Both the position numbers and the translations under genes were made by a program. The notes beneath the pieces were generated by a model, which saw only the letters and a program-made list of their open reading frames with translations, was not told the DNA's origin and did not search any database. This document shows positions 1-8,757 of a DNA stretch of 27,573 bases, in pieces; position 1 is the first letter of the stretch; each line of letters begins with the position of its first letter. Source of the DNA: Elainellaceae cyanobacterium (lineage in GTDB: Bacteria; Cyanobacteriota; Cyanobacteriia; CAZCXK01); the NCBI GenBank assembly GCA_051117555.1, contig JBNPEG010000048.1:5782-33354 (forward strand). Reading direction: 5' to 3'.

Positions 1-62
1 ATTGAGTTCGTTTTAATGTGAACTGGGCGTTCTTCGATTGCTTGATTTGAGACTTGATTCAT
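1..62 (-). CDS. 5' end of a gene running off the left edge (MNQVSNQAIEERPVHIKTNS...), product unknown
   Basis: ATG at 62-60 on the minus strand, GGGAG Shine-Dalgarno-like sequence at 73-69, open frame to the window edge; only 20 codons visible. Confidence 0.55.
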   Translation of the reverse strand, partial: MNQVSNQAIEERPVHIKTNS

Positions 63-213
63 CGTGGGCTCCCGTCGATGATGCATGATTTCTAGTTGCA
101 AAGCACTTTATTGTGGTTTGTTTTTTTCTCTTCTTTCGTCTGACTTGAGGGATAAACCTAAGCCCGTAGGGCTATATCACCCTGACACGAGTCTCTAGAT
201 ATTTTCCAAATAC

Positions 214-296
214 ATCTTCAGGACTATCCGCAGGAATGTCCTGAAAACGAGTGGCAAGGATGCGTTTCAACCTGTCCTCCGGACTGTCTGCCAGAC
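214..296. repeat. 12-bp-period array of quasi-palindromic GTCCTNAGGAC-like units (cluster 1)
   Basis: ATCTTCAGGAC 214-224, ATCCGCAGGAA 226-236, GTCCTGAAAAC 238-248, GTCCTCCGGAC 274-284, GTCTGCCAGAC 286-296; all starts differ by multiples of 12. Confidence 0.8.
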
Positions 297-345
297 AGAT
301 TGCAACTGCACTCGTCTTCCTAAGAACAAAAATTAGTGAAGAAAC

Positions 346-353
346 GCGATCGC
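346..353. repeat. HIP1 octamer GCGATCGC (one example of many across the window)
   Basis: Also at 905, 1315 and dozens of other positions; characteristic of cyanobacterial genomes. Confidence 0.95.
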
Positions 354-378
354 TCAATAAATCCGTAAAGAGAGCGAT

Positions 379-999
379 ATGATTAGGAAATATCCTGAGG
401 ACAGTCCAGAGGATAATGGAATGAGCTATGGAGAAATTGACCGCTTTCCCGTTAGTCAGCTAACCGAACGCTATGGCGACCTGGCGCGGAGTGCAGTCTA
501 CAGTAGGCTCGAGGCTCTGGGAATCAAGCCTAAACGAATTGGCAATCGATCCTATGTGAATGCTGAGCAACTGAGACTGATGGATGATCTGCACCAGTTC
601 ATTAATTCAGGGAGAAGTACAGCAGAATTTCTTGAGATGAGAGGACTGGATTCAGCTACCAATTCATCATCTAGACAGTCCTCAGAGCAATCCTCAGGAC
701 TGTCTACCGTATCCCCCGATATCGTTCGGCTTGTCAGCATGATCGCCTCCGAAATTGCCTCGCGGTTTCAGCCCCCGATGCCCGAACCGGATCCATTGGC
801 ATATTATGAGACTCTAGAACGAGCCGCCCAGCAAGGATGGCTCCTTAAAACCTCAGAGGTTGCCTACTTACTACGGTTGCCCGCCGATGAAATTCAACAA
901 TATGGCGATCGCTTTTCTGAAGCAGGGTTTATATTCACTCGGGCAGGATACCGGGCTCCTGGTGAAATAGCATGGAAAGTCTCTAAACCTGTACAATAA
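379..999 (+). CDS. Hypothetical DNA-binding protein with two predicted (winged) HTH domains joined by a Ser/Pro-rich linker; the true start may be ATG 421
   Basis: 206-aa ORF. N-domain FPVSQLTERYGDLARSAVYSRLEALGIKP..RSYV resembles a MerR/Xis-type HTH; C-domain WLLKTSEVAYLLRLPADEI resembles a second HTH. GAGGA precedes ATG 421. Confidence 0.75.
   Translation: MIRKYPEDSPEDNGMSYGEIDRFPVSQLTERYGDLARSAVYSRLEALGIKPKRIGNRSYVNAEQLRLMDDLHQFINSGRSTAEFLEMRGLDSATNSSSRQSSEQSSGLSTVSPDIVRLVSMIASEIASRFQPPMPEPDPLAYYETLERAAQQGWLLKTSEVAYLLRLPADEIQQYGDRFSEAGFIFTRAGYRAPGEIAWKVSKPVQ
392..414. repeat. 12-bp-period repeat pair (cluster 2) over the translation-initiation region of the HTH gene
   Basis: ATCCTGAGGAC 392-402 and GTCCAGAGGAT 404-414. 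Confidence 0.85.
666..705. repeat. 12-bp-period repeats (cluster 3) inside the HTH gene linker
   Basis: ATCATCTAGAC 666-676, GTCCTCAGAGC 678-688, ATCCTCAGGAC 690-700; AGACAGTCCT (673-682) and AGGACTGTCT (696-705) form a perfect 10-bp inverted repeat. Confidence 0.8.
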
Positions 1000-1022
1000 A
1001 AAAGCCAGCTTTGGCGCTGGCT
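998..1022 (-). terminator. Intrinsic terminator-like hairpin with its U-tract on the minus strand
   Basis: Stem AGCCAGC 1003-1009 / GCTGGCT 1016-1022, A-tract from 998 overlapping the stop of ORF 379-999. Confidence 0.6.
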
Positions 1023-1219
1023 CGACTGTTCGTGTTCAATTGGATTCGTGTTCTGATAGTGATTCTGAGGGTGATGTTGGTGTTAGCACTGGCATCACCT
1101 AGTCTTTTAGGTCGATGGACTGTCAGTCATTCTGGCACATGTACGCCAGCAGGAGCTTTACCCACCAGTGGAGGCTGTTCTCCCTAGACCCTCCAGTCTT
1201 TCTTCGTACACTTTAGCAT

Positions 1220-1289
1220 GTCCTGAGGACAGTCCGAAGGATTTTCCTGATATTTTCCTGAAGATATTCCTAAGGACAATCCTGAGGAC
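1220..1289. repeat. Six tandem 11-12-bp units (cluster 4)
   Basis: GTCCTGAGGAC 1220, GTCCGAAGGAT 1232, TTCCTGATATT 1244, TTCCTGAAGAT 1255, TTCCTAAGGAC 1267, ATCCTGAGGAC 1279. Confidence 0.9.
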
Positions 1290-1463
1290 AGATTGGAATA
1301 CGCCGTTTAAGATGGCGATCGCAATCCTAGAGCAGTATGTGCTTGAATTGAGCACAATTGAAAATGGCTATAAATTAGCTAATGAAATGGAGTACAGGCA
1401 AGTTGCCCGTGCTATCAAAGCCTAGCCTTCAGGAGAAAAACAAACCACTCGCACTAGAGATTT

Positions 1464-1498
1464 GTCCTAAGGATCATCCTGTGGTCAGTCCTGAAGAT
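1464..1498. repeat. Three tandem 12-bp units (cluster 5)
   Basis: GTCCTAAGGAT 1464, ATCCTGTGGTC 1476, GTCCTGAAGAT 1488. Confidence 0.85.
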
Positions 1499-1534
1499 AT
1501 AGCGGTATGCGCTTGGGTTAAGTACGGCACAGTC

Positions 1535-1898
1535 TACTGGTGTAGCATAGCTAAAATGGTGCATTAGGTAGGGTGTCGTTAGCGCAGCGTAACGCACCGG
1601 ATTCAAGAGCTTCAGCCCTTTAAGGATTTGCACTATTTTAGACATGTCACGACACTACTGGTGTAGCACAGCTAAAATAGTGCATTAGGTAGGGTGTCGT
1701 TAGCGCAGCGTAACGCACCGGATTCAAGAGCTTCAGCCCTTTAAGGATTTGCACTATCTTAAGCATGTCAGGCCACTACTGGCGTGGCACAGCTAAAATA
1801 ATGCATTGGCAGGGTGCTGTTAGCGCAGCGTAACGCACCGGTTTCAAGAGTTTCAGCCCTTTAAGGGTTTGCACTATTTTAGACATGTCACGACACTA
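1535..1898. mobile_element. Three head-to-tail copies of a 120-121-bp MITE-like element with imperfect terminal inverted repeats and an internal REP-like hairpin
   Basis: Units start at TA 1535, 1656 and 1777 and end at TA 1898. Ends TACTGGTGTAGCACAGCTAAAATAGTGCA / TGCACTATTTTAGACATGTCACGACACTA; internal GTAGGGTGTCGTTAGCGCAGCGTAACGCACC. Confidence 0.8.
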
Positions 1899-1958
1899 CA
1901 TAGTGTTAGGTCTGAGGCATGACCGCAGCCTAGATTCGGCCCTAGCTTAGCTAAATCC

Positions 1959-4900
1959 CTATTGACTCAGCATGGTCTTAGACAAAACGCCATGAATCTG
2001 ATCGAGTAACTCTTTCATAGACACCGACGCTGACACGATATGCAGAGGGGATGATTGACTCGTGCGCTGTAGCTGTTGAGTCTGGATATAAGCAGACGCA
2101 TGAGAGGCATAGCTGCCATCTAGCACAAAGACAGGAACGGTTATTGCTAGAGTTTCAAGCCAGCTCATGGTATCTGCTAACGCCTTCATAGACTGTTCTG
2201 AGCTCACATAAAGTATCAATAAATTAATCGACCGATGCTGAAGCTGATGGCGAATATCAGGCCAGGCATTAAGGATCGAACATTGGAGCCCAGCCGCTTG
2301 AAAATAGCGCATTAATGCGCTCAGCCAAGTGTCAGTGTGCTTCATGCCATTGTGCACCGATACGACTTCAAATGACTGGCAATTTTCGGTGGAATGAGTA
2401 GTTAGGTCGGCTAAGTCAACCAGGGCAATATGCGGAGCCCAACCAATACCAGCCGCAATTCGAAGTGCTTGAATCAGAGCAGACGCTTGAGACGGGCTCA
2501 CCGTATTATCGTAAGTATCTTGTAATTCTAAACACGGAAATACTGCAAGTCCCGGTATCTGATTAGCCACTTGCGTTATGTTGGGCGTGAGAGTCACAAT
2601 CGGCAACGTCACCAGATAGGGATTTTGACTGAGCTCCTGCATCAGAGATTTTGGATCAGCAATGCTGCCATCAATCAGAATGACATCCGGGTTCCAGACC
2701 CGCGCTAGAAGATCAGCCTGATCAACATCGTCTACTTCTAAAACCCGACAGTGATAGGGATACAGCAGATGATTTAAATCGCATCGTGTCGTCAGATCAG
2801 GGGCTCCAGATTCTAGGATTTGATTATCCTCATCTGATTCTAGAAATCCTGAGACGTCAAGCCCTGATTCACCCTCAGATTTGTCCTCATTTCCACCCAT
2901 CGTCCTGCCTACATTCAAGTAGAGCACGGTCAGATCAGACAAACTCTCTGTATGAGCATCGGCGTCAGATTTCAGACGCGTGAGAGATTCTAGGGTCGTT
3001 CGTAACGCCTCAAGCTGGATGGGCAAATTTAGAAATCCCGAAGCTCCGTTACAGCGAACAGACCCTGTTTCAACAGGTGATGCCATGATAACCACTGGAA
3101 CATGCTGAGTCTGAACATCCGATTTTAAGAGCGTCATCACGCCCCAACCCGACAGTAGCGGTAAATCTGGGTTCATCAACACGGCAACGGGTTGCAACCG
3201 ACGAATTTTACCGATCGCCTCTGTCCCTGAACGGGCGATCGCCACTCGATAGCCTAATTGGGTTAATTGTTCTGTCAGAGAATCTAGATGAGAGGATGAG
3301 CCTTCCACCACCACCACCAAATGATTTTGTCGGCTCAACGTCGATGTTGATGCAAGAAGTGACTGAAACTTGGCAAGCTCCATTGCCTTAATCTGGGGCG
3401 GGCAGAGGGGCAAAAGCAATGTGAATTGGCTTCCTTGGGACTCTACAGACGTAAATGATACATCACCGCCATGCAACTGAGCGAGCCGCTGCGTCAAGAC
3501 CAATCCCAAACCAGCCCCTTCAAATCGGCGCGTTAAAGGATGCTCTAACTGCTGAAACTTTTGGAAAATTAAATGCTGCTTATCCGCTGGGATGCCGATG
3601 CCTGTATCCCACACTTTAAGAGCCATCCAACCGTCCCATGATGTTACGCTCAGACCAATTTCTCCATCGGCAGGGGTAAATTTCACGGCATTCGACAATA
3701 AGTGAGCTAGCATTTGCCTTAGCCGCAGTTCATCTGCAATGAGATGGTTTAAGCCAGGTTCAATGTCTAAAGAAAATGGCGCCGTTTTAACGTGTGTATC
3801 ATCTTGATCAGACGATATATTTTCAGAACTATAAATTTGTTGAGCCTGCCGATATGCTGCTTCGCAAATGCCACGAAGTTCAACTGGCTCTAGCATTAAC
3901 TTAAGCTGTCCTGTTTCAATGCGAGTCAGATCGAGAATGTTGTTGACAATCAACGAAAGGTGGCGACCGCTTTGGTGAATCAGTTGAGCGTAGTAAACCT
4001 GGCGACTATTCAACGGACCAAGCTGTTGATCTTTCAGTAAACTCGACAACCCAAGTATGGCAGTCAAGGGAGTTTTGAGTTCGTGACTAATGCAGGCCAA
4101 AAATTCATCTTTCAATCGATTAAGCTGGGTTAAATCTGCGTTTTTAGCAATTAGCTCTCTAGCGATTCGCTCGTGTTCTGTGGCATCCTGCGCGAGAACC
4201 AACCAAAAATCGGTTTCAGATTGACCCAGCGATGATGACGAAGCAGCATCTTGAGTCAACGGAATGTCGGGAGATGATGAGACGGACGATACTAGCCATT
4301 GATCAGAAATGGCTAAATCCGAACTGCCTGCTGTCGATAATGTCGCCACTTCAGCAATCGTGTGCGCATCAGTCATCGAATCCGAAGAAATCTGCAGCAG
4401 AACTTTAATGAACTTCCAAACCTGCTCGCGCCCGTCCTCCATTAACTGGACGCAAATGCAAGTATTGGAGGTGTTTCCAGGTTTACATAGATCTGCGGCG
4501 CCAAATTCGCCGTAGCGAGCATTCAAGTCTACAGGGGAGACTTCGTTCAGATTGGATGCAGTATCGAAAGCAGTATGACTGTCTACTGAATCGGAGAGGG
4601 AGGGATGGGGTGCTGATGCATAGGTCGATGCCGTTTGCATCAAAATGGTAGTCATATCATGCTGAAGCTTGGATGCTGTTTGAGACGCTCCGACCTGCTG
4701 CTGCCACGCTAAATTCTGAGATACAACCTCTCCCGTTCCGGTTTGTATCATCACAGGCAGTGGAAAATGTCTTAAAAGCTGACTTGTTGATTGGATGACA
4801 TCATCAGCCAACCGACCGGCAGAGCTAGTATTGCCTGTGTTAATTGAGGGATTGTCTTGCTGAGCCGGACTCCAAATCTTAGCTTTATTTAAATCTGACC

Positions 4901-5357
4901 CGTGGGTTGCTAGAAACTTCCAGAGATCCAGCCGATTTAATACTCCTACCGGGATATTCGTCTCACTTAGCAACACACATTCGTGATTAGGAAAATCTTG
5001 TAGACTCGCTTGTGCCTGATTTAAGCTTGATTTAATCGGGAGGGTGATAACCGGGCAAAGCAGAGGTTGAGTGTCTTGGTCACAGGATGATTTACTCAAT
5101 ATTTCGGCAATACTTCCCTCCAACGGCTTCGGAGACGAGAGGAGCGACGCGTCGGATTGATGGGGCGCAAGCACATACGGGAGAATGCGGTGAGCTGCTA
5201 ATATGCCTAATGGTCGCTGCTGCTCATCGGTAATCAGAAGGCGATCGCACGGGTATTCCTCTAGCGTCTTAAGAAGAGACAATACACTATCTGTATGAAT
5301 ACAGATAGGCAAGCGTTCAAGAAAAGTAATGAGAAAATCAGGATTCGTGAACGGCAT
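1959..5357 (-). CDS. Hybrid sensor histidine kinase (N-terminal CBS-like region, HisKA, HATPase, C-terminal receiver-like domains)
   Basis: H-box KDEFLACISHELKTPL, N-box LLSNAVKFT, G1 DTGIGI, G2 GAGLGL, receiver-like segments after about aa 680. Confidence 0.93.
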   Translation of the reverse strand: MPFTNPDFLITFLERLPICIHTDSVLSLLKTLEEYPCDRLLITDEQQRPLGILAAHRILPYVLAPHQSDASLLSSPKPLEGSIAEILSKSSCDQDTQPLLCPVITLPIKSSLNQAQASLQDFPNHECVLLSETNIPVGVLNRLDLWKFLATHGSDLNKAKIWSPAQQDNPSINTGNTSSAGRLADDVIQSTSQLLRHFPLPVMIQTGTGEVVSQNLAWQQQVGASQTASKLQHDMTTILMQTASTYASAPHPSLSDSVDSHTAFDTASNLNEVSPVDLNARYGEFGAADLCKPGNTSNTCICVQLMEDGREQVWKFIKVLLQISSDSMTDAHTIAEVATLSTAGSSDLAISDQWLVSSVSSSPDIPLTQDAASSSSLGQSETDFWLVLAQDATEHERIARELIAKNADLTQLNRLKDEFLACISHELKTPLTAILGLSSLLKDQQLGPLNSRQVYYAQLIHQSGRHLSLIVNNILDLTRIETGQLKLMLEPVELRGICEAAYRQAQQIYSSENISSDQDDTHVKTAPFSLDIEPGLNHLIADELRLRQMLAHLLSNAVKFTPADGEIGLSVTSWDGWMALKVWDTGIGIPADKQHLIFQKFQQLEHPLTRRFEGAGLGLVLTQRLAQLHGGDVSFTSVESQGSQFTLLLPLCPPQIKAMELAKFQSLLASTSTLSRQNHLVVVVEGSSSHLDSLTEQLTQLGYRVAIARSGTEAIGKIRRLQPVAVLMNPDLPLLSGWGVMTLLKSDVQTQHVPVVIMASPVETGSVRCNGASGFLNLPIQLEALRTTLESLTRLKSDADAHTESLSDLTVLYLNVGRTMGGNEDKSEGESGLDVSGFLESDEDNQILESGAPDLTTRCDLNHLLYPYHCRVLEVDDVDQADLLARVWNPDVILIDGSIADPKSLMQELSQNPYLVTLPIVTLTPNITQVANQIPGLAVFPCLELQDTYDNTVSPSQASALIQALRIAAGIGWAPHIALVDLADLTTHSTENCQSFEVVSVHNGMKHTDTWLSALMRYFQAAGLQCSILNAWPDIRHQLQHRSINLLILYVSSEQSMKALADTMSWLETLAITVPVFVLDGSYASHASAYIQTQQLQRTSQSSPLHIVSASVSMKELLDQIHGVLSKTMLSQ

Positions 5358-5594
5358 TGGAGACAGTCTCTATACATCAGAACCAGCCAATCGATAATTC
5401 ACGAGGAAACAGTAAATTCGCCGCATGGTGCCTAAATCTGCTTTAATCCAATTATGCCTCTTCACATAAGTATCGAGAACCTTTAGAACTACAATAAATA
5501 TTAAGTATTCTAATATCGAGCAACATTTCTACACGAAATGTCGATATGGGTCTACATTCTCACTAGCTGTTGATAGTCTGTATCCTTCGTTATC

Positions 5595-6500
5595 TTGCAC
5601 CCTCAATTTTCGATTTGCGCTCTTCTTTATTCAGGCTCTCTAGCAACCGAACTTTCACATGCTATGAGAGAGGATCACTATACGCTGAACCAGTTCAGTT
5701 CTGCTGCTGAGTTTCTGACGACTGTGGAGGAGGATAATCATCAAATTGACTGCCTTGTCCTAGAAGGCAACAGCCGCTTGTCATCAATTCTTGAGCAACT
5801 TGAGCAGAGAGAAGTCTTCCTTCCAGTCGTCGTAATCGAATCTCCAGATTATTTTGAGACGAGGCAACCCACATCAACGCAGTCATCTACGTCTAACTCA
5901 GCTACTCCCCTCGTTCCAGACGAGCAATACCACACAGCAATTTTAAGAATGAGGGTTGCTCAACTTGACCAGATTGGGTCATTCATTGATCAAGCTATTA
6001 CTAAATTTTTAGAGCTCTCACCCGCTTGTTCACTCCCTAAAGATAGATCCGGATCTCAAACATCACCCCAGTCATCATCCGAAGATGTGTTAGTTCCACA
6101 TCAGAAACGGTTAGCGGAAAAGCTAAGAGAGCGTTTAGGATATCTCGGTGTGTACTACAGACGAAATCCTCGAAATTTTCTGCGCAACATGCAGCCTGCT
6201 GAAAAGCAAGAATTCTTTTCTGAATTAAAAACGGTCTACCGAGAAATTATCCTAAACTACTTTTCCGATGACGATAATTTAAATCAAAGGATTGATAATT
6301 ATGTAAATATGACATTCTTTGCCGATATTCCGGTTGCCAGAGTTGTCGAAATCCATATGGAGCTGATGGATGACTTTTCTAAACAGCTAAAACTGGAAGG
6401 CCGGAGTGAAGAGATATTGCTCGATTATCGATTAACGCTTATCGATACTCTGGCAAACTTATGTGAAATGTATCGCCGATCTATTCCACGAGAGTCATAA
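5595..6500 (+). CDS. kaiA: Circadian clock protein KaiA (long form with N-terminal pseudo-receiver)
   Basis: LAEKLRERLGYLGVYYRRNP, HMELMDDFSKQLKLEGRSEEILLDYRLTLID, CEMYRRSIPRE; TTG start uncertain. Confidence 0.97.
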   Translation: MHPQFSICALLYSGSLATELSHAMREDHYTLNQFSSAAEFLTTVEEDNHQIDCLVLEGNSRLSSILEQLEQREVFLPVVVIESPDYFETRQPTSTQSSTSNSATPLVPDEQYHTAILRMRVAQLDQIGSFIDQAITKFLELSPACSLPKDRSGSQTSPQSSSEDVLVPHQKRLAEKLRERLGYLGVYYRRNPRNFLRNMQPAEKQEFFSELKTVYREIILNYFSDDDNLNQRIDNYVNMTFFADIPVARVVEIHMELMDDFSKQLKLEGRSEEILLDYRLTLIDTLANLCEMYRRSIPRES

Positions 6501-6570
6501 ACTAAACGAGATATTCAGACTTGCCTATTTTTATCCTCGCCTTTTTTGAGAACCATTCTTAGATTGCTTT

Positions 6571-6888
6571 ATGACTTCCTCGAATAAGACCTATATTTTG
6601 AAGCTGTATGTAGCGGGAAACACCCCCAACTCAATTCGGGCTTTAAGAACTCTAAAGAGCATTTTGGAACGAGAATTTAGGGGTGTTTATGCTCTAAAGG
6701 TGATCGATGTTCTCAAAAACCCACAGTTAGCAGAAGAAGATAAAATTTTGGCAACACCTACTCTCTCAAAGATTTTGCCTCCACCAGTACGAAAAATCAT
6801 CGGTGATTTGTCAGATCGGGAAAGGGTTTTAATTGGTCTAGATTTACTATATGATGAATTGCTTGATGACGATGCAGACTATGAATAA
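6571..6888 (+). CDS. kaiB: Circadian clock protein KaiB
   Basis: [16 protein letters not shown]...[15 protein letters not shown]...RKIIGDLS, acidic tail. Confidence 0.99.
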
Positions 6889-7001
6889 TTAAGACGTCGA
6901 TGCTGAGTTTTGATAAGCGACCCATTAGCAGATGAAAAGCGGCTCCTATCCTGAGCAAAATGCGTCTCAAATTTTGCAATTTATTACCTTCTCTCTCAAT
7001 G

Positions 7002-7093
7002 TATAGCGATCCTAAATCGCTTGTGAATTGTGTGTGAGCGGTGGGGCAGGCGCCGCCCGCCCCACCGCTCACAACCCATCTAAGATTGCTATA
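7002..7093. mobile_element. Miniature inverted-repeat element with a strong internal hairpin between kaiB and kaiC
   Basis: Ends TATAGCGATCCTA / TAAGATTGCTATA are imperfect inverted repeats; perfect 15-bp stem TGTGAGCGGTGGGGC 7033-7047 / GCCCCACCGCTCACA 7059-7073. Confidence 0.75.
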
Positions 7094-7194
7094 TTTCATC
7101 TGAATCATTTATTCCAACTGATTATAGACAGTAGTGCTCGTGCTTAAAATTATGCCCCTTCGCTGACTTAAAAAATGCGTCTTTACTAAGAATC

Positions 7195-8757
7195 ATGCAG
7201 AAGAACAATTACGACGGACGGCAGAACGAGACAGCCTTAGAAGGTATTCAGAAAATTCGTACCCTAATTGAAGGCTTCGACGATATCAGTCATGGAGGTC
7301 TGCCCGTTGGTCGAACAACCCTGGTCAGTGGCACATCAGGCACTGGCAAAACACTAATCGCTGTTCAATTTCTCTACAACGGAATTACTCAATTTGATGA
7401 GTCAGGAATATTCGTTACGTTTGAAGAATCCCCCATTGACATTATTAAAAATGCATATAGCTTTGGCTGGAACCTACAAGAACTTATCGACGATGGAAAA
7501 CTGTTTATTTTAGATGCATCTCCCGACCCCGAAGGGCAAGATGTGGTCGGCAATTTTGATTTGTCTGCTCTCATCGAGCGGATTCAATATGCCATTCGTA
7601 AATACAAGGCAAAGCGCGTTTCGATTGATTCGGTAACGGCTGTTTTCCAACAATACGATGTTGCGTCAGTTGTTCGTCGAGAGATCTTCAGGTTGGTTGC
7701 ACGTCTGAAACAAATGGGTGCAACCACGATTATGACTACCGAACGGGTTGAAGAATATGGGCCAGTCGCTCGATTCGGGGTCGAAGAATTTGTATCCGAC
7801 AACGTCGTCATTGTTCGCAATGTGCTAGAAGGCGAACGGCGGCGTCGAACCATCGAGATTTTAAAGCTACGAGGTACGACTCATATGAAGGGAGAGTACC
7901 CGTTTACGATAACCAATCAAGGTGTCAGCATTTTTCCGCTTGGCGCGATGCGTCTGACGCAGCGCTCATCTAATATCCGGGTGTCCTCTGGCGTTAAAAC
8001 CCTTGACGAAATGTGCGGCGGCGGATTCTTCAAAGACTCAATTATCCTTGCGACGGGCGCAACAGGAACAGGTAAAACCTTGTTAGTCAGTAAGTTTCTT
8101 CAAGATGGCTGTCGCATAGGAGAACGGGCATTGTTATTTGCTTACGAAGAGTCTAGAGCGCAGTTATCGCGAAACGCGTATTCGTGGGGCATCGATTTTG
8201 AAGAGTTAGAGCAACAAGGGTTGCTAAAGATCATTTGCGCCTATCCAGAGTCAGCAGGGCTAGAAGATCATTTGCAAATTATTAAATCAGAGATTGCAGA
8301 TTTCAAACCGTCAAGGGTCGCCATTGATTCGCTGTCGGCATTAGATCGGGGTGTAACCAATAATGCCTTTCGACAGTTTGTGATTGGTGTAACAGGCTTT
8401 GCGAAACAGGAAGAGATCACCGGATTTTTCACCAACACAACAGACCAGTTTATGGGGTCTAACTCGATTACCGATTCTCAAATCTCGACCATTACAGATA
8501 CAATCTTGCTCTTGCAGTATGTCGAAATCCGTGGCGAGATGGCTCGCGCGATTAATGTCTTTAAAATGCGGGGATCATGGCACGATAAGGGCATTCGCGA
8601 ATATGTGATCAGTGAAGAAGGGCCTCAAATTAAAGACTCATTCCGCAATCTTGAACGAATTATTAGCGGCTCACCCACTCGAATCTCAGTGGATGAGAAG
8701 AGTGAGCTCTCTCGCATTGTGAGGGGGTTTCAAGATAAGCCAGAAGATGACCTTTAA
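7195..8757 (+). CDS. kaiC: Circadian clock protein KaiC (double domain)
   Basis: Two P-loops GTSGTGKT and GATGTGKT, EE catalytic motifs, S431/T432 phosphosites, follows kaiAB. Confidence 0.99.
   Translation: MQKNNYDGRQNETALEGIQKIRTLIEGFDDISHGGLPVGRTTLVSGTSGTGKTLIAVQFLYNGITQFDESGIFVTFEESPIDIIKNAYSFGWNLQELIDDGKLFILDASPDPEGQDVVGNFDLSALIERIQYAIRKYKAKRVSIDSVTAVFQQYDVASVVRREIFRLVARLKQMGATTIMTTERVEEYGPVARFGVEEFVSDNVVIVRNVLEGERRRRTIEILKLRGTTHMKGEYPFTITNQGVSIFPLGAMRLTQRSSNIRVSSGVKTLDEMCGGGFFKDSIILATGATGTGKTLLVSKFLQDGCRIGERALLFAYEESRAQLSRNAYSWGIDFEELEQQGLLKIICAYPESAGLEDHLQIIKSEIADFKPSRVAIDSLSALDRGVTNNAFRQFVIGVTGFAKQEEITGFFTNTTDQFMGSNSITDSQISTITDTILLLQYVEIRGEMARAINVFKMRGSWHDKGIREYVISEEGPQIKDSFRNLERIISGSPTRISVDEKSELSRIVRGFQDKPEDDL

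Follow-up and report, generated by a model that had tools for sequence, protein, structure and literature searches.

Regulators encoded beside a small RNA are known from the pairs OxyR-OxyS, GcvA-GcvB, and SgrR-SgrS, and repressor/antisense pairs are known from pIP501 (CopR/RNAIII) and lambda (cII/OOP). MerR-type operators lie between the −35 region and the −10 box. Xis, P2 Cox, and BldC, most of them single-domain proteins of 50 to 90 residues, bind direct repeats head to tail. The centromere repeats of the staphylococcal plasmid pSK1 are reportedly 12 bp long. According to PMC11500499, the central part of the pSK1 partition protein Par is a coiled coil, and its C-terminal region has DUF536 and an amphipathic helix of the membrane type. 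Here we describe a locus in a 27,573-nucleotide (nt) stretch of an Elainellaceae cyanobacterium genome (GenBank assembly GCA_051117555.1, contig JBNPEG010000048.1, positions 5,782 to 33,354, forward strand), referred to below as the window. The gene for a two-domain winged-helix protein lies there among phased arrays of a short palindrome and points toward a conserved structured RNA gene on the opposite strand.

We regard it as probable on balance that the locus is a cassette of three linked parts: a 192-amino-acid protein, phased operators, and a convergent RNA of ~200 nt. With moderate confidence, we propose from the sequence features that the protein is a dedicated, autoregulated repressor that would assemble on the arrays and gate the RNA. 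The features of the cassette, in window coordinates, are as follows.

215 to 247, no strand: distal upstream operator array of three units (215, 227, and 239) with a 12-bp period, from the motif scan.
275 to 326, no strand: two single weaker operator-like sites (275 to 283 and 318 to 326) with one mismatch each, from the motif scan.
378 to 383, plus strand: likely −10 box (TATGAT) of the protein gene promoter, containing ATG 379; predicted by reading the sequence.
393 to 413, no strand: proximal operator pair, TCCTGAGGA cag TCCAGAGGA, in the predicted 5′ leader, at −28 and −16 from ATG 421.
421 to 999, plus strand: gene for the 192-amino-acid two-domain winged-helix protein, from the search for relatives and AlphaFold2 models.
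679 to 699, no strand: intragenic operator pair within the part coding for the disordered linker (reading ...SSGL...), from the motif scan.
997 to 1204, minus strand: conserved structured RNA of ~200 nt, convergent with the gene, from conservation, fold, and model; its ends are predicted.
1002 to 1023, minus strand: intrinsic terminator, GAGCCAGC...GCTGGCTT followed by TTTT, abutting the protein stop codon, from the sequence.
1210 to 1218, minus strand: extended −10 promoter of the RNA, TGCTAAAGT on the minus strand, abutting the first operator.
1221 to 1288, no strand: downstream array 1, six phased units at about −20 to −85 of the RNA promoter.
1465 to 1497, no strand: downstream array 2, three phased units ~245 bp past array 1.

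The presumptive operator is an 11-bp palindrome, (G/A/T)TCCTSAGGA(C/T), with ~20 copies in the cassette. Its units lie at 215/227/239, 393/405, 679/691, 1221/1233/(weak 1245)/1256/1268/1280, and 1465/1477/1489, keeping a 12-bp register throughout the arrays except for a single 11-bp step in the cluster from 1221 to 1280. A first-pass annotation of the window, made from the sequence alone, had described phased quasi-palindromes with this same period and single irregular step, and its positions agree with our scan. Allowing up to one mismatch, TCCTNAGGA matches 23 times in the 27.6-kb window, with 14 matches within 215 to 1497 and 9 over the remaining ~26 kb; shuffles of the whole window gave a mean of 11.3 (standard deviation, 3.6) and reached 23 in 1 of 100. 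At the genome-wide rate for the same tolerance (1963 sites in 6.06 Mb, or 0.32 per kb), ~0.4 sites would be expected in the 1.3-kb locus, against the 14 found. Allowing two mismatches, the locus holds 23 sites (16.4 per kb) versus 3.3 per kb in the remaining window.

Exact copies of the motif number 77 genome-wide, against ~92 expected from base composition. All five of the adjacent pairs spaced at exactly 12 bp in the whole assembly are at the locus, which is also the one place in the genome with a cluster of three or more units. Because the exact motif is not overrepresented and all of the 12-bp pairs are at the locus, the motif is not a dispersed repeat. The genome-wide scan that the first-pass annotation had called for thus goes against the dispersed-repeat alternative and confines the arrays to the locus in the source genome; the statement that the rest of the window holds only scattered single matches is borne out as well, with 9 sites in ~26 kb and every 12-bp-spaced pair at the locus.

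Motif and gene are a conserved pair among certain filamentous cyanobacteria, across many genera. We compared seven related loci with 53 to 96% identity, and all seven have an operator pair at −28/−16 from the ATG (−27/−15 in L009), further upstream sites, arrays 770 to 1050 nt downstream, and one intragenic site at +246 to +270. A regular expression recovered the proximal pair from 24 of the 29 gene copies. Many orthologues have a second operator pair, spanning the −35 region of the protein gene, and several orthologue loci carry a second site cluster 150 to 320 bp past the first. The distal upstream arrangement is also present in the near relatives L004 and L005, which keep the weaker sites at 275 to 283 and 318 to 326 as well. 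Adjacent sites up to 60 bp apart in 30 orthologue loci gave 179 spacings; 118 of these equal 12 bp exactly, multiples of 12 are the next commonest, and spacings of 10, 11, or 13 bp do not occur.

In a phylum sample of 401 genomes, 47 contain a relative of the protein. The five loci at 58% identity or more (source genome included) carry 12 to 19 sites per 3.5 kb, and 25 more distant loci carry 0 to 3. We also scanned five other genomes, three of them closed or single-contig assemblies, for the tandem double site; its matches fell at the cassette in 14 of 14 cases (G017), 6 of 6 (G515), 11 of 11 (G346), 10 of 11 (G080), and 2 of 3 (G516), with 0 to 2 matches per genome on both strands for a reversed-pattern control. 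Arrays accompany the gene in 7 of 7, 5 of 5, and 28 of 29 loci in the three sets compared. Homologues lacking flanking arrays had been named beforehand as grounds for rejecting the pairing; the orthologue loci do carry them. The accompanying suggestion that the motif co-varies with the protein was not upheld among orthologues, where the motif is simply conserved. The intragenic operator encodes an SSGL-like tetrapeptide, the sole conserved piece of the linker. Since the only conserved linker residues (SSGL and its variants) are those encoded by the operator, the DNA site appears to constrain the linker protein sequence and not vice versa.

It is very unlikely, in our judgment, that the repeats are the sites of something other than this protein, whether another factor, a role at the level of RNA or translation (through AGGA or TCCT), or an iteron origin. 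The motif does hold a Shine-Dalgarno-like AGGA, the proximal pair does lie in a leader, and phased short repeats beside a protein with two winged helices recall iteron-type initiators. However, the sites are palindromic, flank the gene on both sides, lie upstream of the RNA start, and keep an exact 12-bp register; their palindromy, placement, and register fit recognition of double-stranded DNA. Furthermore, linkage to the protein gene is exclusive in the genomes examined, with no better candidate binder, and subfamilies of the protein differ in their repeats. No Rep family model, nor any ParB model, matched the protein in Pfam or NCBIfam, and a plasmid carrying one relative has a replication gene of its own, CyRepA1.

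The start of the protein gene bears on how the proximal pair is read. The first-pass annotation placed the start at ATG 379, giving an open reading frame (ORF) of 206 amino acids (379 to 999). Most of the homologues listed are cyanobacterial, measure 185 to 191 amino acids, and cover 92 to 93% of that query, and the reading frame in other genera opens at the methionine equivalent to ATG 421. ATG 379 itself sits within the likely −10 box; by inspection, most orthologue loci have a −10-like hexamer, mostly of the ATACT type, 8 to 14 nt before the proximal pair. Because homologous frames open at the equivalent of 421 and ATG 379 lies within TATGAT, we replaced the earlier start: the true one is most likely ATG 421, giving 192 amino acids. 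With that start and the likely −10 box at 378 to 383, the cluster previously placed over the start falls in the 5′ leader; the placement of the other clusters upstream of, inside, and downstream of the gene stands.

Three other reading frames were considered as coding and rejected. The plus-strand ORF at 1011 to 1187 (58 codons) and the ORF at 1312 to 1425 (38 codons) are each common to the near relative L005 alone. By inspection, a short AUG-started frame in the conserved RNA hairpin shows mostly nonsynonymous variation and varies in length.

The AlphaFold2 model of the full protein, built with 78 relatives, has a predicted local distance difference test score (pLDDT) of 88.8 and consists of two confident domains and a disordered linker. 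Residues 7 to 75 form an N-terminal domain with a MerR-type winged helix-turn-helix (HTH) fold (pLDDT, ~95), pLDDT falls below 50 at linker residues 86 to 92, and residues 99 to 190 form a winged-helix-like C-terminal domain that reached a pLDDT of 94.1 when modeled alone. The two models support the earlier call of two HTH-like domains. In the fold search that had been proposed for this protein, the N-terminal domain came out nearest the DNA-binding domains of RacA and pSK1 Par: RacA was the best match (Z score, 8.6; root mean square deviation [RMSD], 2.3 Å over 66 residues), and Par matched at Z 7.8 (RMSD, 1.2 Å; 53 of 53 residues). MerR, GlnR, TnrA, SoxR, TipAL, and others scored Z 7 to 8.2. 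Foldseek returned RacA chains at a probability of 1.00 but with E values of 0.05 to 0.1. The fold resemblance of the modeled domain to RacA and Par is real, yet ordinary MerR-type regulators reach the same Z. A firm fold assignment for the C-terminal domain was dropped, as its search returned weak winged-helix-type matches (Z of 4.3 or less).

Profile searches placed the protein in no described family. It matched no Pfam family at E values up to 1 and no NCBIfam model. The Pfam models MerR and MerR_1 matched 0 of 78 family members, and the commonest Pfam match, HTH_17, was weak and confined to 11 of 78 (best E value, 2.8e-4). In the model, neither the long antiparallel coiled-coil dimerization helix of MerR nor an effector region is present; the wing is followed by short helices at residues 48 to 62 and 67 to 74, the disordered linker, and the separate C-terminal domain. 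A profile search of Protein Data Bank sequences gave nothing meaningful (best E value, 0.022, to an unrelated lipoprotein), and a PHROGs search reached E values of 0.25 to 0.34 at best. A homodimer prediction from two copies (alignment A1) scored 0.01 and 0.00 and was used neither way.

Relatives are numerous: a word-indexed search found 256, and a full scan with HMMER gave 614 cluster representatives at E values up to 0.001, publicly annotated as hypothetical, "MarR family," or "MerR family." Relatives with 24 to 41% identity occur on 30 cyanobacterial plasmid records, Synechocystis PCC 6803 pSYSM among them, and on small contigs of multireplicon genomes. One relative is encoded on plasmid pP880103, where a separate CyRepA1 replication gene is present and no ParA is annotated. 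Several subgroups carry distinct repeats, ACTGGAC(A), ACTAGACA, or GTCCACTGGACA, with 9- or 12-bp periods, and the GGAC/AGAC-type repeats of distant homologues lie close to the start codon and recur where the linker is encoded. In the TCCTNAGGA clade, the predicted recognition helix is (A/V)(R/K)SAVY, and in the CTGGAC/CTAGAC groups it is S/T/G-K/R-Q-S/A-V/L-Y, with Q in the place of the orthologues' S. Across groups, this pattern is suggestive of recognition helix and motif varying together, a comparison of sequences that is confounded by relatedness. The pSYSM relative (L041, record positions 30677 to 31183) is annotated as hypothetical and has ACTGGACA-type repeats upstream; next to it, in the same orientation, come genes for an HNH endonuclease and a DNA phosphorothioation-associated methyltransferase. 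It may serve as a handle for tests of the family in a model strain.

The third part of the cassette is the RNA. A noncoding block of ~200 nt between the stop codon and the first downstream array is common to all orthologue loci. A DNA pattern made from it found 29 stretches in a collection of species-representative genomes, 28 of them cyanobacterial, and 28 of the 29 have the protein gene upstream and an array beginning 74 to 84 nt downstream. The remaining stretch, from a Desulfobulbus assembly, lacks both gene and array and was set aside as a chance match.

The block has the properties of a structured RNA read from the minus strand. The consensus fold energy of the core is −32.1 kcal/mol on the minus strand versus −13.8 kcal/mol on the plus strand. 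In an alignment of 26 sequences (A2), 25 pairs arranged in a three-way junction are paired in 99.7% of cells. Compensatory changes affect 9 of the 25 pairs (35 cells), values that were reached in 0 of 500 column shuffles; the observed value for further pair types was reached in 116 of 500. Sliding the partners by 1 to 3 columns lowered pairing to 31 to 53%. About 15% of the RNA cells are G-U, which the plus strand would read as mismatches, and the minus strand is favored as the strand of the RNA. The window RNA folded alone has a z-score of −2.4. The first-pass annotation had seen no RNA gene at the locus; a conserved minus-strand RNA, predicted to run from ~1204 to ~997, occupies this region.

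The RNA comprises the three-way-junction core, a conserved GGUGAUG...CAUCACC hairpin (GGUGAUG-CCAGUGCUAACACCAA-CAUCACC), an A/C-rich spacer, and the terminator. Full-length RNAs measure ~190 to 210 nt in 17 loci and up to ~420 nt where an insertion lies between core and hairpin. The terminator hairpin and U-run recur in full-length RNAs of other genera. At a fixed place and distance before the first helix, 24 of 26 aligned loci have TGnTAnnnT and the other two have TAnnnT. The junction reads ...GGAC-A/G-TGnTAnnnT, so that the promoter directly follows the last operator. Promoter, intrinsic terminator, and structure with covariation are the generic marks of a bacterial small-RNA gene, and all are present here.

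A covariance model of the RNA (R1) has a single match in the source genome (E value, 6e-26), at 1099 to 1224 of the window with the promoter included. Of 151 genomes sampled from the class, 15 contain a match, always as a single copy. The protein gene lies alongside in all 15, with 6 to 20 motif sites. R1 matches 10 of 10 orthologue loci versus 0 of 28 distant-homologue loci. Rfam 15 gave no match at E values up to 1 in window positions 1 to 2000 (both strands, permissive filters). Among public sequencing runs, no RNA run contained the stretch, and four DNA metagenome runs contained part of it.

By inspection, a second, upstream CAUCACC with covarying extensions around an A-rich loop can pair with the same GGUGAUG, and these two partners suggest alternative RNA structures. 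Read on the plus strand, the hairpin at 1069 to 1100 with its T-rich tail resembles an mRNA terminator of the protein gene; it could be a switch or a bidirectional terminator. The protein mRNA may end at this hairpin, in which case the convergent transcripts would overlap by ~100 nt and antisense feedback would be possible.

The cultivable strains Leptolyngbya sp. JSC-1 and Leptothermofonsia sp. ETS-13 both carry the cassette. Some loci depart from the common layout. In Leptothermofonsia sp. ETS-13 (L008/L069), a GC-rich element of ~100 nt (...ggggtacaggggtagaaacccctggctgg...) lies between the RNA core and the conserved hairpin, and a similar copy lies upstream of the protein gene; judging from such sequences, the RNA tolerates insertions between core and hairpin, reaching ~420 nt. 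A Pseudanabaenales assembly (L007/L059), L052, and L063 have two tandem copies of the entire cassette (gene, RNA, and arrays), the two protein copies being ~50 to 64% identical to the query. In L053, the RNA and one gene copy are divergent and share one array region.

From the observed arrays, their phasing and restriction to the locus, the co-occurrence of protein, motif, and RNA, the covariation, the promoter and terminator motifs, and the folds, we infer binding of the motif by the protein, the sign of regulation, and the expression and role of the RNA. The protein would bind each palindrome, probably as a dimer, and adjacent dimers would join cooperatively to fill the phased arrays; side-by-side packing of dimers is favored by the palindromic form of the units and by their exact 12-bp register. 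At its own promoter, operators just past the predicted transcription start, and often also at the −35 region, would bring about self-repression; a proximal pair placed shortly after the predicted start is in line with autorepression. At the RNA gene, the six-unit array abutting the extended −10 box would let the protein gate transcription. From this arrangement, the sign there is most likely repression; MerR-style activation through promoter remodeling is possible, given the MerR-type fold and an operator beside the −10 box. The intragenic and distal arrays would probably add cooperative or looping contacts, and downstream array 2 possibly consists of auxiliary or looping operators. The RNA would be the output of the cassette, and its 3′ part may be antisense to the 3′ end of the protein mRNA, providing feedback.

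Several points weigh against the repressor-and-RNA model. The only array targets lie at the protein's own locus, and a regulator requires an output; that output rests wholly on the RNA acting in trans or having a nontranscriptional role. The best fold matches, RacA and pSK1 Par, are segregation proteins and not regulators. A 12-bp period does not coincide with the helical repeat; operator arrays typically show it, but so do wrapped complexes of the partition type. Among distant homologues, exact 7-mer counts show repeats clearly in ~8 of 28 loci (more by eye), and the helix-motif covariation rests on two or three related groups. We think it unlikely that the locus is instead a nucleoprotein-RNA module, in which a plasmid-derived protein with two winged helices would coat ~1.3 kb, its own gene included, in a heritable, chromatin-like on or off state, with the RNA as its ligand- or protein-binding partner rather than an ordinary small RNA acting by base pairing. 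It is just as doubtful that the RNA of such a module would be a decoy or sensor feeding back on the protein or an effector against foreign DNA; if true, the module would be a previously unseen RNA-based switch or defense in Leptolyngbya-like cyanobacteria.

The surroundings of the cassette bear on two further explanations. Its neighbors in the window are core chromosomal genes, including those for a hybrid histidine kinase, kaiA, kaiC, EPSP synthase, and a DEAD-box helicase, among others, and no mobile genes were seen near it there. ORFs of 234, 628, and 224 amino acids lie upstream. Flanking genes conserved between genera were not found beyond close relatives. The distance from the cassette to dnaN, used as a proxy for the origin, is about 1.14, 0.87, 1.34, and 2.86 Mb in four genomes, the last figure assuming that contig C1 is the scaffold with the locus. 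A position at the origin or terminus was rejected: the cassette is neither beside dnaN nor consistently opposite it.

The first-pass annotation proposed a single-protein centromere or nucleoid-organizing role. On that proposal, the coated arrays would position, anchor, or tether a chromosomal locus, and autoregulation would be incidental; we consider this quite unlikely. It draws on the closeness of the N-terminal domain to the RacA and Par DNA-binding domains, on a lone gene with flanking and internal phased repeats, and on the relatives on 30 plasmid records, with pP880103 having CyRepA1 and lacking an annotated ParA. According to PMC11500499, Par and RacA are both MerR-type winged-helix segregation proteins. 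However, the orthologues are chromosomal and single-locus, lie 0.9 to 2.9 Mb from dnaN in the four genomes, and do not keep a conserved position; neighbors vary, and no conserved partner gene was found. The predicted model lacks a long coiled coil, and DUF536 is absent at Pfam E values up to 1. The arrays coincide with elements of two promoters, the largest abutting the conserved RNA promoter. Nor is there an obvious rationale for one centromere per polyploid chromosome far from dnaN. A centromere role for the orthologues' arrays is thus unsupported, and we retain segregation or anchoring as a minor rival explanation.

Alternatively, the locus could be a domesticated mobile-element cassette for immunity, addiction, or defense, with the repressed RNA as a toxic, antiplasmid or antiphage, or leftover copy-control antisense effector, an explanation that we find improbable. 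It is equally hard to favor the specific form in which repressor and RNA act like CopR/RNAIII or a phage immunity region. On plasmid-like contigs, distant homologues do neighbor restriction-modification, defense, toxin-antitoxin, recombinase, and mobilization genes (HsdM, a type I restriction subunit, a PLD nuclease, STAND NTPases, AbiEii, PIN, integrases, and MobC with a relaxase). PADLOC returned a single weak mad1 match (E value, 0.002; 16 bits), which we treat only as a lead. Neighborhoods are unrelated in different genera, the cassette is tandemly duplicated in some, and heavy multisite repression would suit a costly product. Set against this are the position among core chromosomal genes without mobile genes nearby and the lack of an attached replication gene or toxin protein. 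The cassette is also kept in single copy across several families at 47 to 70% protein identity, and such retention suggests a host function. Searches of GenBank phage records (tblastn) found no relative, and neither did a single-protein query of IMG/VR viral contigs. Among the nearest feature-space clusters in the ESM Atlas was one of 222 members (score, 0.94) labeled 77% viral.

Other observations concern the window itself. The segment from 1959 to 8754 is a circadian clock cluster, with a minus-strand gene for an 1132-amino-acid hybrid histidine kinase with a receiver domain, kaiA at 5595 to 6497, kaiC at 7195 to 8754, and room for kaiB between them; it lies next to the cassette in the source genus alone. 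Positions 1545 to 1900 hold three tandem units of ~121 bp with a GC-rich imperfect hairpin (62 BLAST hits on 45 contigs). These repeats were rejected as part of the cassette, being dispersed genome-wide, and the unit looks like a miniature mobile element unrelated to it. The window opens directly after a 100-N scaffold gap (N-run at 5682 to 5781 of contig C204), and at least its first 100 bases, about 127 (1 to 127), exactly duplicate the sequence before the gap (5555 to 5681). The duplicated flanks are probably an assembly join of overlapping contig ends, by which the 5′ end of the divergent upstream 234-amino-acid ORF is present twice.

A literature search turned up no published account of this motif, protein, or RNA in cyanobacteria, in keeping with the earlier remark that the motif/protein pair was not recognized there. 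The protein belongs to a family of at least 614 sequence clusters without a Pfam or NCBIfam model that is common on cyanobacterial plasmids. Its probable recognition code is marked by an unusually strict 12-bp register, and operators lie within the gene's own linker-coding region. The ~200-nt RNA, with strong covariation and no Rfam entry, is strictly tied to the chromosomal branch of the family and would be a new RNA class if it is a sensor or effector. A regulator with a seemingly single noncoding RNA target would be a compact, testable circuit and a possible orthogonal repressor-operator part for cyanobacterial engineering, and the system bears on how MerR/RacA/Par-type winged helices are recruited to regulation or segregation.

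Compared with described segregation systems, the protein shares with pSK1 Par (8csh) an N-terminal MerR-type winged helix (Z 7.8), a lone gene beside its own repeats, and plasmid-borne relatives. Unlike Par, to which it has no detectable sequence relationship, it has a disordered linker and a winged-helix-like C-terminal domain in place of the coiled coil and C-terminal region reported for Par, and its orthologues are chromosomal and tied to a noncoding RNA. RacA, which anchors the Bacillus subtilis chromosome during sporulation through ram sites, provides the best fold match to the N-terminal domain (5i41 and 5i44) and likewise binds short palindromic sites, but it differs in C-terminal architecture, and the origin-proximal spread of ram sites contrasts with arrays confined to one 1.3-kb locus.

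MerR-family factors, including the small GlnR/TnrA type, share the winged HTH fold (Z 7 to 8.2), and their operator placement recurs at the RNA gene, where the operator nearest the promoter sits between the −35 region and the −10 box. However, the protein has no Pfam MerR match and no long dimerizing coiled-coil helix after the wing, and its sites are arrays of 2 to 6 palindromes rather than a single dyad. With Xis, P2 Cox, and BldC, which are weak fold matches to the N- and C-terminal domain models (Z 3.4 to 4.5), it would have in common cooperative multicopy binding to close short sites, and some of its distant homologues lie beside recombinase genes. In contrast to these proteins, its units are palindromic, it has two domains, and no recombinase is found at orthologue loci.

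The regulator/small-RNA pairs offer the closest layout, a DNA-binding protein gene beside a small-RNA gene with its sites, and lambda cII/OOP shares the convergent arrangement with 3′ overlap. Those pairs involve other protein families and wider regulons or an RNA antisense to a replication gene, whereas the protein described here is seemingly dedicated to one locus, and its RNA is larger, forms a three-way junction, and has no Rfam family. A regulator beside a small-RNA gene under its control is thus a kind of system already known; what is new here is the protein family, the strict 12-bp operator arrays reaching into coding sequence, the apparent dedication to a single locus, and the RNA.

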